Shown here: in pieces, positions 2,873 to 28,705 of the stretch
How the letters are laid out: every line of letters starts with the position of its first letter
Position numbering within the stretch: position 1 is the stretch's first letter
From: Bacillota bacterium
GTDB lineage: Bacteria; Bacillota; Dehalobacteriia; UBA7702
Length of the DNA: 64,000 nt
Reading direction: 5' to 3'
Assembly: GCA_963928475.1 (NCBI GenBank)
Contig: CAWVFN010000061.1
Coordinates: forward strand, 7,208 to 71,207
Position numbers and translations under genes: made by a program
Notes under the pieces: model-generated
Seen by the model: the letters and a program-made list of their open reading frames with translations, nothing else
Told to the model about the DNA's origin: nothing
Database searches by the model: none

Positions 2873-3091
2873 GATTTGCCCCTTTCTCAATTGATATGGT
2901 TTATTCTATGAGATAAAAAGGTAAAAGGTTAATGTTAGTAGGAGTGCTTTTAAAGAAAAGGCGCTGAGGGGGTGTTTAATTTTTTTAAGGGTTCTTTGCG
3001 GTACTGGAAAAAAACTTCTATAATTGGCAAGTTATTTATGACTTACTGATTTGTGACAAAAAATAATAAGTCTGAAATGACTTGACGAATA

Positions 3092-3120
3092 TAAAAAGCC
3101 GGGCTATAATTAAAGCATAA
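3092..3120 (+). promoter_or_regulatory. Sigma-70-type promoter TTGACG-N17-TATAAT for the PHP-activator operon. An AAGTC-N6-GACTT repeat (3078-3093) overlaps the -35.
   Basis: Read from sequence; 24 bp upstream of ATG 3144. Confidence 0.5.
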
Positions 3121-3143
3121 ATAAGAGAAAGGCTGACTTTGAT

Positions 3144-3935
3144 ATGAGGAACCCTTATGACTTACATGTCCACTCTTTGGATTTTTCCGGCGACGCTGTT
3201 TCATATATGGAGGAGATGTGCCGGGAGGCGATAAAAAAGGGTTTAAAGCGGATATGTTTTACGGAGCACGTTGATTTTGATCCTAATTATGATGATTCCA
3301 TTCCTTTTGTGGCAGAGAAATATGATAGATTTATAGAGAATATGCGGAACACCTATGGTGCTGATTTAGAAATTCTCAAAGGTGTGGAGGTAGGGGAGCC
3401 TCATATGTATCCTGGTGAATACGAGAAAGTATTAGCGGGAGATTACGACATGGTGATGGTAGGTTTACATTATGTCAATTTACCCATGGGTCTGCATTGG
3501 ACAGGCAATGGTGGCAGGGATATATTTACTTTTGCCGTTGATCGTATTTACCATCGTTATTATGAGGATCTTTTGTCAGTAGCCCAGCTAGGTGGGTTTG
3601 ATGTTTTAGCCCATTTTGATTATCCTAAGCGCTATTTGAAAAAAGATGCCGATGAACATGAGCTTATTAAGGAGATTATATCGACGGTTTTGAGGAATGG
3701 CGGCATTTTAGAGATAAATACTTCTCCTTGGCGTAAAGGTTGTGATGAGTCCGCTCCCAGCGGAAAGATTTTATCATATTATAGGGATGCCGGCGGCAGG
3801 AATCTGACAATAGGTTCTGATGCCCATGATATTAAAGATTTAGGCGCTGATATTGACAGAGCCTATGAACTCGCTTCTGAATTTGATTTTACTGCTGGTT
3901 ATTTTAAAGGTCGCAAGTTTTGTGTTCTTAAATAA
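3144..3935 (+). CDS. PHP-domain phosphoesterase (HisJ/histidinol-phosphatase family).
   Basis: N-terminal DLHVHS and the TEH..D metal-ligand pattern typical of PHP phosphatases. 263 aa. Confidence 0.7.
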   Translation: MRNPYDLHVHSLDFSGDAVSYMEEMCREAIKKGLKRICFTEHVDFDPNYDDSIPFVAEKYDRFIENMRNTYGADLEILKGVEVGEPHMYPGEYEKVLAGDYDMVMVGLHYVNLPMGLHWTGNGGRDIFTFAVDRIYHRYYEDLLSVAQLGGFDVLAHFDYPKRYLKKDADEHELIKEIISTVLRNGGILEINTSPWRKGCDESAPSGKILSYYRDAGGRNLTIGSDAHDIKDLGADIDRAYELASEFDFTAGYFKGRKFCVLK

Positions 3936-3941
3936 GGGGTA

Positions 3942-26509: not shown

Positions 26510-27973
26510 TTGACTCTCGATTACGATTTAAGAATAATCCAGGAAACAAGGGATTTAGCTCGTAAAGCCAAAGAAGCCCAGGCTATACTTGCCACTTTCT
26601 CTCAGGAAAAATTGGATGAGATAGTGAAAGCTATGTCTGAAGCTGTAATCGCCAATGCTGAATGGTTGGCAAGGATGGCTTGCGATGAAACAAAATATGG
26701 TATTTATGAAGATAAAGTTATCAAAAATACCTTTGCTGCCAGAGAAGTTTATGAATATATTAAAGATATGAAAACTACGGGCTTCATTAAAGAGGATCCC
26801 GTAAATAAAATTTACGAATACGCTATGCCCGTTGGTGTTATTATGGGTATTATTCCCACAACTAACCCCACCTCCACCCTTATCCATAACGCTATGTGCG
26901 CTGTTAAGAGTGGTAACGCCATAGTATTTTCACCCCATCCCAACGCGGTGAAATGTTCAGTTGCTTCCGCCCAGGTTATGATGGACGCTGCGGCGAAAGT
27001 TGGCGCTCCTGACGGCATTATCAGCTGTCTGACCAAGGTAAGTATGGAAGGTGCCGATGCTCTGATGCATAACGATAATATTGATGTTATCGTTGCTACC
27101 GGCGGCCCCGGACTGGTAAAATCCGCTTACAGCGCTGGTAAACCCGCTTTAGGTGTTGGTGCTGGTAACGTACCTGCTTTTATCGAACGTACAGCTAATG
27201 TTAAGAAAGCCGTTCATGATATTGTTACCAGTAAGACCTTTGATAATGGTATGATTTGCGCTTCTGAACAAGCGATTATTGCTGACTTGCCTGTAAAGGA
27301 TCAAGTTGTGGCGGAATTGAAGGCTCAGGGTTGCTATATCATGAATGAGGAAGAATCCGATAAGGTAGCTAAACTCATCATGACTCCCACCAATGGTATG
27401 AATGCGGCTTATGTAGGTAAAACCGCTTGTTATCTGGCGGAACACGCTGGTATTAATGTTCCCGCCGGTACCAAGCTTCTTATCGCGCCTATGGACGGTT
27501 ATGGTAAAGAGTATCCTCTTTCCCATGAAAAGCTTACCACTGTTTTGGGCTTCTATTGTGTTAAGGATTGGCATGATGCCTGCGAACTGTGCAGAGGTCT
27601 TCTCAGCATTGGCGGTATTGGTCACTCTCTGGTTATTCACAGCCAGGATGATACTATTATCCGCAAATTTGCTGAAAAACCTGTATCCCGTATTTTGGTC
27701 AATACTCCTGGTTCTCTTGGCGGTATTGGCTATACCACCAGTATTTCTCCTTCTCTCACTTTGGGTTGCGGTACTTGTGGCGGCAGCAGTCTCGATGAAA
27801 ACCTTACTCCTTTGCACTTGATCAATGTTAAAAAATTGGCTTATGGTACCTGTGATGCCAATTTTGCCCCGGCTGAAACCAGCGCTCCTGCTGCGCAGCC
27901 TAATTGCGGAGCTACCGCTGATGTTATCACTGACGTTGTTAAACAGGTGTTAGCCCAGCTGCAGTCCCGGTAA
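26510..27973 (+). CDS. eutE: CoA-acylating acetaldehyde dehydrogenase EutE.
   Basis: Aldehyde dehydrogenase fold with the catalytic Cys in NGMICASEQ. 487 aa. TTG start. Confidence 0.85.
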   Translation: MTLDYDLRIIQETRDLARKAKEAQAILATFSQEKLDEIVKAMSEAVIANAEWLARMACDETKYGIYEDKVIKNTFAAREVYEYIKDMKTTGFIKEDPVNKIYEYAMPVGVIMGIIPTTNPTSTLIHNAMCAVKSGNAIVFSPHPNAVKCSVASAQVMMDAAAKVGAPDGIISCLTKVSMEGADALMHNDNIDVIVATGGPGLVKSAYSAGKPALGVGAGNVPAFIERTANVKKAVHDIVTSKTFDNGMICASEQAIIADLPVKDQVVAELKAQGCYIMNEEESDKVAKLIMTPTNGMNAAYVGKTACYLAEHAGINVPAGTKLLIAPMDGYGKEYPLSHEKLTTVLGFYCVKDWHDACELCRGLLSIGGIGHSLVIHSQDDTIIRKFAEKPVSRILVNTPGSLGGIGYTTSISPSLTLGCGTCGGSSLDENLTPLHLINVKKLAYGTCDANFAPAETSAPAAQPNCGATADVITDVVKQVLAQLQSR

Positions 27974-27985
27974 GGGGTGATTAGC

Positions 27986-28639
27986 ATGAATGAACAGGAT
28001 TTATCGGCTTTGATCGCTAAATTAGTTAAAGAACAGCTAGATAAGGCAATGCCGGCGGCGGAAGCTAATATGGTTCCCGTTGGTATTTCCAATCATCATA
28101 TTCATCTTAGCCAGGAAGATTTTGAGACTCTTTTTGGTAAAGGGGCGACGATGACCCATTTTAAGGATCTTTCTCAGCCAGGTCAATTTGCCTGTAAAGA
28201 GGTTATGACCGTGGTTGGTCCTGGCGGTGCTATTGAGCGTGTTCGTCTTTTAGGACCTGCCAGAAAGCAAAGCCAAGTGGAAGTTTCCGTGGCAGACTGC
28301 TTTAAATTGGGGATTCAAGCTCCCTTACGTGATTCAGGAGATCTAACAGGTTCTGCTGGTGTGACACTTGTTGGTCCTAAGGGAAGTGTCACCTTGGATG
28401 AAGGCTGTATTATCGCTATCAAGCATATTCATATGCACACCAGCGACGCCGCAAGACTTGGTTTAAAGGATAAGGACAAGGTCAATGTTAAGACCTGTAC
28501 ACCTCGGGGCATCATCTTCCTGGAAGTTTTGATTCGTGTCAGTGATAATTTCAAACTGGAAATGCACGTTGATATGGATGAAGCCAATGCCGCGTCTTTA
28601 AAGAATGGCGATATGGTGCAGATAATAGGCAAATGTTAA
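27986..28639 (+). CDS. pduL: PduL-type phosphotransacylase with an N-terminal encapsulation-peptide-like helix.
   Basis: Two PduL repeats (GISNHHIHLSQEDF and IAIKHIHMHTSDAARLGL). N-terminus EQDLSALIAKLVKEQL. ATG 27986 follows AAGGGG; the ORF-track start is GTG 27977. Confidence 0.8.
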   Translation: MNEQDLSALIAKLVKEQLDKAMPAAEANMVPVGISNHHIHLSQEDFETLFGKGATMTHFKDLSQPGQFACKEVMTVVGPGGAIERVRLLGPARKQSQVEVSVADCFKLGIQAPLRDSGDLTGSAGVTLVGPKGSVTLDEGCIIAIKHIHMHTSDAARLGLKDKDKVNVKTCTPRGIIFLEVLIRVSDNFKLEMHVDMDEANAASLKNGDMVQIIGKC

Positions 28640-28666
28640 CTAATGAAAATATGTCATAAATAAAAT

Positions 28667-28705
28667 GAGAGGGTATCTTATAGTAGTAAGATACCCTCTT
28701 TAATT
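28667..28705. terminator. Hairpin GAGAGGGTATCTTA-N6-TAAGATACCCTCT followed by TTTAATT, between convergent genes.
   Basis: Perfect 13-bp stem. Confidence 0.65.

Follow-up and report, generated by a model that had tools for sequence, protein, structure and literature searches.

Do genes for corrinoid-dependent demethylation and genes for an ethanolamine microcompartment that lie side by side in a bacterial genome serve one pathway? The question is raised by a gene island of ~25 kilobases (kb) in a 64-kb stretch of contig CAWVFN010000061.1 from a Bacillota bacterium (GenBank assembly GCA_963928475.1), hereafter the window. The island encodes a pyrrolysine (Pyl)-type and a non-Pyl MttB methyltransferase, two kinases, two phosphatases, a transporter-like membrane protein, a sigma-54 enhancer-binding protein (the activator) and a eut operon for a bacterial microcompartment (BMC) (Table 1). 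A preliminary description of this DNA had proposed one sigma-54 regulon that joins these units. Our analysis leads us to regard it as probable that the island serves the catabolism of choline-type N-methylated amino alcohols as one regulon under one sigma-54 activator.

Choline is a major source of trimethylamine (TMA) in guts and sediments, and the sole described anaerobic alternative is the MthB enzyme of Eubacterium limosum (2025), which takes one methyl group off and leaves dimethylethanolamine to be excreted. The conserved coupling described below points to a route that could use up the whole choline molecule without TMA, in carriers that include Peptococcaceae, Desulfosporosinus, Sporomusa, Acetobacterium, Thermincola, Dehalobacterium and many uncultured lineages. 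The preliminary description held the coupling to be undescribed, which stands in part: kinase-coupled choline demethylation was published in 2025 and is already known, as are eut compartments, Pyl-MttB and sigma-54 regulons of Clostridia, while no paper was found on its coupling to eut, Pyl-MttB or sigma-54. Our literature search found no sigma-54 control of a eut operon and no conserved MttB–eut coupling, and it found neither this activator group with its motif, nor the Pyl-MttB subclade tied to choline kinase-family (ChoK) genes, nor the distinct non-Pyl clade. The activator group and its motif would be new, and would represent a third regulatory solution for eut besides EutR and EutVW.

Sigma-54 promoters and a common palindrome

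Five −24/−12 elements are present in the island at the positions given in the preliminary description. The exact motif TGGCAY-N5-TTGCA occurs 4 times in the window against 0.05 expected, a number reached in none of 100 dinucleotide-preserving shuffles, and all 4 copies are located inside the island. All five elements are intergenic and oriented toward the downstream gene, whose start codon lies 35–140 nucleotides (nt) further, and the GG-N10-GC spacing fits the extended consensus TGGCAC-N5-TTGCW at each of them. The element at 5610 is off by one base, and its TGGTAT variant is kept before the orthologous gene in three related loci (L001, L012, and L088; the prefix L numbers the loci compared).

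If these matches were coincidences in AT-rich intergenic DNA, the units would use sigma-70 promoters, and sigma-70-like hexamers can indeed be found in each intergenic region. Two further observations are in keeping with chance and speak against the proposed regulon or its enrichment: no rpoN gene was found in the 64-kb window, so that rpoN would lie outside it, and the loose pattern with two mismatches is not enriched in the window (31 found, 26 expected). What makes the signal specific is therefore the strict form of the motif, together with where it lies and how well it is conserved. Against coincidence stand not only the excess of the exact motif but also (i) the retention of site position and motif across loci whose proteins are merely 55–80% identical, (ii) the co-occurrence of the motif with a common palindrome at a fixed distance, and (iii) the linkage of the motif to an intact enhancer-binding protein gene. 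A chance origin of the sigma-54 elements is effectively excluded.

The window encodes a single enhancer-binding protein, as previously described, in which a Pfam search identified the PAS, Sigma54_activat (PF00158, 225 bits) and HTH domains; the Walker A motif GESGTGKG, the LFLDEI sequence and the loop GSFTGA were read from the translation. The other domain calls of the preliminary description were likewise borne out by Pfam, and the scanned open reading frames (ORFs) of the window yielded neither EutR/PocR nor an ANTAR regulator, in agreement with the stated lack of EutR and EutV/EutW. Among the NCBIfam models the activator matches PrdR best, but its 412 bits stay far below the cut-off of 795 (NF041552). 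The PrdR-type regulons of Clostridia (Nie et al. 2019, PMC6615313) have in common with the window a PAS-AAA-HTH activator, the Clostridial −24/−12 consensus, activator sites ~100 nt upstream, and catabolic control. By contrast, the regulated genes differ, and the window site AAGTCA-N4-TGACTT is unlike the sites of PrdR and 14 further groups, which are reported to be of the TGT-N10-12-ACA type (PMC6615313). Membership in the PrdR or YcbP group of Nie et al. was rejected because of the score below the cut-off and the other binding motif. No choline, TMA, eut or microcompartment regulon is included in that survey (PMC6615313).

The palindrome AAGTC-N6-GACTT (consensus AAGTCA-N4-TGACTT), with at most 1 mismatch, occurs 8 times in the window against 1.6 expected, and none of 100 shuffles reached 8. 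Seven of the 8 copies fall in regulatory regions of the island, and a palindrome is located 87–149 nt upstream of 4 of the 5 sigma-54 promoters. We infer that this palindrome is the likely binding site of the activator. At the activator operon, the palindromes at 3029 and 3068 adjoin the −35 box of its sigma-70 promoter, and the operon is probably autoregulated through them.

The non-Pyl mttB promoter at 12021 does not have a palindrome within 230 nt, either in the window or in L001, L007, and L008, which counts against a regulon with one operator; merely a kept half-site, AAAAA(C/A)GACTTA, is found ~200 nt upstream (11805–11845). The palindrome is also missing from the promoters of the ChoK-like kinase (ChoK1) in L001 and L003. 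These observations would suit an arrangement in which the activator governs the palindrome-bearing units only (Pyl-mttB, the two kinase units, eut, and its own operon), and the 12021 promoter is served by another enhancer-binding protein encoded elsewhere. However, in L034, L035, L039, L041, L093, and L117, mttB belongs to an APH kinase operon behind a palindrome-bearing promoter, and L089 has a perfect palindrome upstream of the mttB promoter, ~460 nt from −24. Enhancer-binding proteins are able to work at a distance or from neighbouring sites, and the kept GACTT half-site could be a weak site. We consider two separate regulons unlikely and favour one activator for all of the units.

Table 1. 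Features of the island, by position in the window
Feature	Position	Strand	Evidence and remarks
Palindrome pair at the activator operon	3029-3044; 3068-3083	.	AAGTTATTTATGACTT; AAGTCTGAAATGACTT; abuts −35 box of own sigma-70 promoter
Sigma-70-type promoter TTGACG-17-TATAAT, PHP–activator operon	3082-3110	+	11/12 matches
HisJ-family PHP-domain phosphatase	3144-3935	+	Pfam PHP; TIGR01856 hisJ_fam 137 bits vs cut-off 90
Sigma-54 enhancer-binding protein, PAS-AAA+-HTH	3942-5465	+	Pfam PAS_4, Sigma54_activat, AAA_lid_14, HTH_50
Perfect palindrome	5478-5493	.	AAGTCGTATTTGACTT; 132 nt upstream of −24 of Pyl-mttB promoter
−24/−12 element, Pyl-mttB	5610-5625	+	TGGTATGGTATTTGCA; TGGTAT-N5-TTGCA variant
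Pyl-type MttB methyltransferase	5659-7170	+	In-frame TAG 6655-6657; Pfam MTTB on both halves
PYLIS-type RNA element beginning at UAG	6655-6754	+	Rfam RF02510 PYLIS_3, 62.8 bits vs gathering score 38
Choline/ethanolamine-kinase-family (ChoK) kinase	7385-8353	-	Pfam Choline_kinase, APH; Brenner motif HNDCLSEN; IDWEY...DIA
−24/−12 element, ChoK-like kinase gene	8460-8475	-	TGGCATAAAAATTGCA; exact motif
Tandem palindromes between divergent kinase promoters	8591-8606; 8609-8624	.	−109/−91 (APH), −149/−131 (ChoK)
−24/−12 element, APH kinase–transporter–small protein operon	8700-8715	+	TGGCATGATTTTTGCA; exact motif
APH-fold ('homoserine kinase type II') kinase, MthK-like	8853-10067	+	Pfam APH; divergent from ChoK gene
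Ten-helix-type membrane protein, distant EamA/DMT relative	10272-11393	+	No Pfam hit
89-aa conserved protein	11398-11667	+	No Pfam family; 52% identical in L124
Conserved hairpin terminator closing kinase–transporter unit	11692-11719	+	CCAAAAGCTGCC...GGCAGCTTTTGG
−24/−12 element, non-Pyl mttB	12021-12036	+	TGGCACGTTTTTTGCA; perfect TGGCAC-N5-TTGCA
Non-Pyl MttB-superfamily methyltransferase (clade X)	12144-13586	+	Pfam MTTB, no UAG
Strong bidirectional hairpin terminator after non-Pyl mttB	13629-13661	+	
HAD-family phosphatase	13903-14541	+	Pfam HAD_2
Tandem palindromes before eut	14571-14586; 14590-14605	.	−106/−87 from eut promoter
−24/−12 element, eut operon	14677-14692	+	TGGCATGAAAATTGCA; exact motif
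16-gene eut/BMC operon: EutS, EutP, EutB, EutC, EutA, EutL, EutT-like adenosyltransferase, EutJ-like, EutN, PduS/RnfC-like flavoprotein, tandem-BMC shell, EutQ, two BMC-H, aldehyde dehydrogenase, PduL-type phosphotransacylase	14801-28639	+	Pfam

Conservation of the arrangement across genomes

The arrangement was examined from two independent seeds. The non-Pyl MttB was searched against one genome per species, which gave 80 species-level loci with neighbours within 10 kb, and the Pyl-MttB subclade was searched against metagenome contigs, with contexts counted on 17 contigs of at least 10 kb. The non-Pyl MttB belongs to a clade, designated clade X, with 58–83% identity across Bacillota, Desulfobacterota, Thermoleophilia/Actinomycetota, Spirochaetota, and Planctomycetota. 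All members fall into a single cluster at 50% identity, which covers at least 5 phyla, whereas the nearest sister groups are only 46–48% identical. The gene association offers a clue to the function of this strongly conserved clade.

Within 10 kb of the clade X gene, an APH kinase is encoded in 55 of the 80 loci (63 for a kinase of either family), a corrinoid protein in 53, a HAD phosphatase (downstream) in 36, eut genes in 24, a PocR/AraC regulator in 17, and a Pyl-MttB in 12; enhancer-binding proteins occur in 8, 5 of which are clear orthologs of the window activator. In Thermincola potens, the genes are ordered eut ... PocR, corrinoid protein, APH kinase, MttB, corrinoid protein, pterin methyltransferase, HAD phosphatase, and RACo. 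Desulfosporosinus has a PocR-type arrangement like that of Thermincola potens, with eutBCA directly beside a kinase–MttB–corrinoid operon and no shell genes. The presence of eut genes near clade X in 24 of 80 loci, many of them with PocR/AraC, indicates that the link between MttB, kinase, phosphatase and eut is general and independent of sigma-54.

On the 17 contigs found with the Pyl-MttB seed, a ChoK-family kinase is encoded near the methyltransferase in every case, often in the same operon (L035, L099, and L117). An activator ortholog (54–77% identical) is present on 12 of these contigs and eut genes on 10. The association of Pyl-MttB, corrinoid protein, ChoK, and eut is also found in L103 and L107, which do not have the window-type activator.

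The architecture of a palindrome followed by a −24/−12 element recurs in ~20 other genomes or metagenome contigs with an activator ortholog. A palindrome and a sigma-54 promoter precede orthologous units in L001, L012, L003, L007, L008, L034, L035, L039, and L041, and, from the Pyl-MttB seed, in L088, L089, L093, L096, L098, L099, L102, L105, and L117. The units preceded in this way are Pyl-mttB, ChoK–corrinoid–Pyl-mttB operons, APH–transporter–mttB operons, ChoK, and eut genes; among the latter, the pair is located before eutS in L001, L003, L007, L008, L088, L093, and L105, before eutB in L089, before eutBC and eutA in L098, and before a BMC/eutL unit in L099. Of the 90 sigma-54-like sites in 23 loci with an activator ortholog, 52 are preceded by a palindrome at a distance of 50–200 nt. 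Exact promoter motifs are 10 times and exact palindromes 6 times denser in 8 activator-type loci than in the 64 other clade X loci. In L093, the genes from APH, MttB, HAD, Pyl-MttB, and ChoK through eutS-L are all on one strand. The proposal of one sigma-54 regulon that joins Pyl-MttB, non-Pyl MttB, kinases and eut is thus reinforced by the common palindrome and by a promoter architecture conserved in ~20 loci.

A compact form of the arrangement is seen in an Anaerovoracaceae chromosome (OY782829.1; L035, 8295–19354), in which one strand encodes, behind a single palindrome and sigma-54 promoter, the transporter, the 89-aa protein, MttB, and HAD, together with a small membrane protein, a permease of the APC type, and eutS-B-C-A-L. 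These genes may form one very long operon.

Methyltransferases, kinases, and phosphatases

What would the enzymes of such a regulon act on? From the sequence comparisons we infer every substrate assigned below to a protein of the island, as well as the continuity of the pathway. For the non-Pyl MttB, the closest described system is that of E. limosum, in which MthK phosphorylates choline and MthB demethylates phosphocholine only (Jiang et al., J Biol Chem 2025, PMC12155760). The APH-fold kinase, the non-Pyl MttB, and the DMT/EamA-type transporter are common to both systems, and the kinase accounts for the ability of an MttB enzyme to handle choline, even though such enzymes ordinarily require a quaternary amine that is acidic. 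Phospho-esters, which the preliminary description had listed among possible substrates, fit this literature best, and the non-Pyl MttB is a candidate phosphocholine (or related phospho-amino-alcohol):corrinoid methyltransferase. Co-localised homologs have been listed for Sporomusa malonica and Ca. Formimonas warabiya (PMC12155760); the proteins at these loci (L018 and L034) are 64% and 63% identical to the window MttB, respectively, and both are encoded next to an APH kinase. Homologs of the window APH kinase include Sporomusa malonica and Desulfosporosinus proteins.

Comparison with E. limosum revealed that (i) the island does not have MthC or MthA, although clade X loci elsewhere have an MthC-type gene in 53 of 80 species and an MthA-type gene in 27 of 80; (ii) phosphatases, a second kinase, Pyl-MttB, and the eut microcompartment are added; (iii) the genes are under sigma-54 regulation; (iv) the layout implies breakdown beyond dimethylaminoethanol; and (v) the window MttB is probably of a different lineage from MthB, without the arginine equivalent to R312 of MtgB.

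This last difference calls for caution. The glycine betaine-binding residues of MtgB are Y97, R312, H348, and F356, and an arginine equivalent to R312 is reported to be conserved in MthB (PMC13080624). The window protein, which matches MtgB at 198 bits (phmmer), has S96, G312, N347, and L355 at these positions, and a function as glycine betaine methyltransferase was rejected because 4 of 4 betaine-binding residues differ. The AlphaFold model of the protein has a predicted local distance difference test score of only 73. Several observations make a direct transfer of the MthB activity less secure. Glycine occupies the R312 position in the whole of clade X and in the sister clusters. No Eubacterium protein at least 65% identical to the non-Pyl MttB was present among the matches listed, none appeared among the best 120 matches of the window MttB or of its clade X homolog from Acetobacterium, and no Eubacterium name was found among the ten nearest sister-cluster representatives. 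E. limosum MthB (WP_341455952.1) and MthK (WP_052237066.1) were not among the top 120 matches in the searches with the window MttB, the Acetobacterium member, or the kinase. Judged by these homolog lists and the reported arginine rather than by the MthB sequence, clade X and E. limosum MthB are probably not orthologs.

A gut Lachnospiraceae metagenome-assembled genome (GCA_948634005.1; L124, 4658–10014) encodes a kinase, a transporter, and an 89-aa protein that are orthologous to those of the window (46%, 57%, and 52% identical, respectively). The MttB of this locus is only 24% identical to the window non-Pyl MttB and has an arginine at the R312 position, a further point on the side of two distinct enzymes. 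A SurE-family phosphatase gene follows the kinase gene, and a MerR-type gene flanks the locus. The occurrence of one kinase–transporter module with two MttB lineages argues, without proving it, that both methyltransferases act on the kinase product.

The membrane protein encoded between the kinase and the 89-aa protein shares ~30% identity with the products of genes that are annotated as EamA and occupy the corresponding place in L003 and other loci, and it is 57% identical to its L124 counterpart. This DMT-like protein is a candidate choline importer. The gene of the 89-aa protein always follows that of the transporter (L001, L007, L035, L088, L117, and L124). At the same position, L099 encodes a 92-aa protein with a weak PadR-like hit (E = 8e-4).

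The island encodes two candidate phosphatases for the later steps. The HisJ-like protein, co-operonic with the activator in the window and paired with it in L003 and L088, is a candidate amino-alcohol-phosphate phosphatase: the substrate of the HisJ family, histidinol phosphate, is a beta-amino-alcohol phosphate like phosphoethanolamine. The HAD protein is a candidate phospho-amino-alcohol phosphatase. The inclusion of a phosphatase gene in the sigma-54 regulon, as formerly proposed, does not hold for the HAD gene of the window, which is located behind the terminator at 13629–13661 and has its own near-consensus, sigma-70-like promoter (TTGACA-17-TATGAT, 13827–13855). It is therefore not visibly driven by sigma-54, looks constitutively or separately expressed in this genome, and detracts from the idea of a fully unified regulon. 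In L001, a sigma-54-like site with one mismatch is located at the position of the HAD promoter.

In the Pyl-type MttB, the in-frame TAG is retained in 12 homologs and aligned with Pyl334 of the Methanosarcina barkeri MttB structure 7xcl (306 bits to 7xcl/7xcm). The kept TAG, the kept downstream frame, and the PYLIS match rule out a pseudogene, and translation may in fact begin at the TTG at 5674, which follows GGAGGTG. By default annotation, the protein is a TMA methyltransferase; its gene context alone suggests a tertiary amino-alcohol substrate. Compared with M. barkeri MttB/MttC (7XCL; PMC9842639), the window gene has the UAG at the homologous position, passes TIGR02369 and keeps G110, Y364, and G372, and it contains a PYLIS-like element; relatives of the window locus have an adjoining corrinoid gene and co-regulated pylS and pylBC genes. 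By contrast with M. barkeri MttB, the subclade is constantly accompanied by a ChoK-family gene and usually by the activator and eut genes as well. The subclade also exhibits invariant substitutions adjoining the catalytic positions (T111E, N245K, Y329W, and S333G), and in the window protein M249 is replaced by leucine. The invariable ChoK-family neighbour argues against TMA as the substrate.

We put forward, as a possibility that we would not yet call probable, that the Pyl-MttB subclade is not a TMA enzyme and instead demethylates the (phospho-)N,N-dimethylethanolamine that the kinase-coupled non-Pyl MttB would yield. Both methyltransferases, with their kinases and phosphatases and with EutBC, would then make up a complete TMA-free choline route. 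If this is true, choline would be converted to N-methylethanolamine or ethanolamine and on to acetaldehyde inside the microcompartment, all induced by one sigma-54 activator. No pyrrolysine enzyme is known to use a substrate beyond mono-, di-, or trimethylamine, and the subclade is a candidate for the first of this kind that can be put to the test.

In metagenome contig JUEG02001291.1 (L099, 3900–11540), a pylS-like class II tRNA synthetase core is encoded with ChoK, and pylB (radical SAM) with pylC (PylC-like ATP-grasp), a corrinoid protein, and Pyl-MttB, all behind palindromes and sigma-54 promoters; this layout is likely also present in L096, L100, L102, L104–L106, and L119. The pyrrolysine machinery of this lineage thus seems to be induced as a member of the regulon. 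If so, genetic-code expansion in lineages like L099 would be switched on by the substrate. Inducible use of pyrrolysine is known from Acetohalobium arabaticum. A variant is seen in L010 and L011 (Peptococcaceae UBA7702 and a relative), which contain two tandem Pyl-mttB paralogs (L010, 821–4139) and, 45–80 nt before eutS, activator-type palindromes (L010, 13209–13293) with no recognisable −24/−12 element. The eutS genes of these loci may have a different promoter arrangement with the same operator.

The eut operon and a proposed route from choline

The eut operon encodes EutBC, a shell of BMC-H, BMC-T, and BMC-P proteins, an aldehyde dehydrogenase, and a phosphotransacylase, which together identify an ethanolamine utilization (EUT) compartment. 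EUT loci such as those of Enterococcus faecalis, Listeria, and Salmonella/E. coli have EutBC, the reactivase EutA, EutS/EutL/EutM-like/EutN shell proteins, and EutP/Q/T/J in common with the window. The window operon differs from them in that (i) a sigma-54 promoter and the activator palindrome take the place of the EutV/EutW ANTAR system and of EutR; (ii) it is joined to methyltransferase and kinase genes; (iii) PduL replaces EutD; and (iv) a PduS-like flavoprotein is present, with no EutH or EutG in the window. No cobalamin riboswitch or other riboswitch was found for the operon with Rfam at gathering thresholds. The operon EutB matches Listeria EutB (2qez) at 575 bits, and the motifs that we take to be the ethanolamine ammonia-lyase active site are intact. 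A special EutB paralog for N-methylated substrates was rejected: the protein is canonical and 62% identical to a second EutB of the window. A literature search on N-methylethanolamine as a substrate of ethanolamine ammonia-lyase found nothing relevant.

This second, stand-alone eutBC pair is located at 39955–42216 (−) with 42432–44094 (+), without EutA, shell genes, a sigma-54 motif, or a palindrome. It adjoins genes of a DUF3887 protein and of a patatin-like phospholipase, which might free phospholipid head groups.

Taken as one regulon, the island would operate as follows. The activator would bind palindromes ~90–150 nt upstream of the −24/−12 elements and, with sigma-54 RNA polymerase, turn on at least four and probably five units (Pyl-MttB, the ChoK kinase, APH–transporter–89-aa protein, non-Pyl MttB, and the eut operon), and it would probably repress its own sigma-70 promoter. 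Choline or a related N-methyl amino alcohol would be imported by the DMT-like protein and phosphorylated, and the phospho-ester would be N-demethylated by the non-Pyl MttB, like phosphocholine in the MthK/MthB system of E. limosum. The resulting tertiary amine would be demethylated by Pyl-MttB, while the ChoK-type kinase would keep or restore the phosphate, and the methyl groups would pass to corrinoid proteins encoded elsewhere and on to tetrahydrofolate. Once the phosphate had been removed, either by one of the two phosphatases (HAD or HisJ-like) or by transfer to a new choline molecule in the manner of MthK, the leftover ethanolamine or N-methylethanolamine would be cleaved by EutBC in the compartment to acetaldehyde, which would yield acetyl-CoA and acetyl-phosphate. 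Stepwise demethylation to ethanolamine or N-methylethanolamine is plausible.

For such a stepwise demethylation, Methanococcoides offers a parallel, with ethanolamine as the end product of its choline demethylation. Direct demethylation of choline and N,N-dimethylethanolamine in this genus (Watkins et al. 2012, cited in PMC13044021) is a precedent for anaerobic N-demethylation that proceeds stepwise through dimethylethanolamine, and the M. methylutens Q3c enzyme is a non-Pyl MtmB homolog (PMC13044021). Unlike the window system, that of Methanococcoides is archaeal and methanogenic, without a kinase step or a microcompartment.

The main rival to a continuous route is a regulon that switches on, at the same time, two separate routes for head groups set free together from phospholipids: choline would be phosphorylated and demethylated once to dimethylethanolamine, which would be excreted, ethanolamine would be imported and used separately via eut, and Pyl-MttB would scavenge the TMA of neighbours. 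E. limosum, which removes one methyl group and then stops at and excretes dimethylaminoethanol (PMC12155760), provides a model for the first of these. The following observations weigh against the continuous route, and several of them lend themselves to the parallel one. The island encodes only two methyltransferases for three methyl groups, and no third. The full-length Pyl-MttB scores 565 bits against TIGR02369, the trimethylamine:corrinoid methyltransferase equivalog, above its cut-off of 525; conserved in it are Gly110 and Tyr364, the catalytic residues that are 100% conserved in Pyl-MttBs (PMC9842639), as well as G372. EutBC is canonical, with no change in the EutB active site that hints at an N-methylated substrate. 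No pyl genes or tRNA were found in the 64-kb window, and genes for a corrinoid protein, a methyl-tetrahydrofolate methyltransferase, or a reductive activase were found neither among the window ORFs scanned nor in the close relatives L001, L003, and L007–L012; these partners would therefore have to come from elsewhere. Some related loci encode a permease for ethanolamine, namely EutH in L003 and L102 and one of the APC type in L035; such genes imply that ethanolamine from outside the cell is a substrate as well.

Four lines of evidence argue against the parallel routes. The ChoK-family kinase is found beside Pyl-MttB in 17 of 17 long contigs, yet TMA cannot be phosphorylated. HAD or PHP phosphatases are recurrent in the loci, and the eutBCA genes of Desulfosporosinus lie directly by the kinase–MttB–corrinoid operon without shell genes. 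Ca. Formimonas warabiya carries the Pyl-MttB subclade but does not use TMA: it grows on choline, forming acetate and ~1 monomethylamine (PMC8163858). Its locus (L034) encodes both methyltransferases, with the Pyl-MttB subclade gene next to the clade X operon. The release of monomethylamine means that two methyl groups are removed, which matches the two methyltransferases and fits a later C–N cleavage; the authors proposed a glycine betaine/sarcosine route instead (PMC8163858). We regard parallel routes as rather unlikely, and prefer a continuous route from choline under one activator.

A compositional check of the island revealed no anomaly, and a recent horizontal insertion was rejected on this ground, although a large serine recombinase is encoded on the left flank (863–2308). 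The same flank contains a CotJB spore-coat gene (2442–2696, −), and a BclA-like collagen-repeat exosporium protein is encoded at 52379–54064 (−); together, these two suggest that the source is a spore-forming member of Bacillota. An SLH-domain subtilase is located at 44269–46053. A T-box leader (Rfam, 94.9 bits; 31237–31479, −), unrelated to the regulon, is located ahead of the genes for a 473-aa pyridoxal phosphate-dependent enzyme (29764–31185) and an ABC substrate-binding protein (28752–29738).

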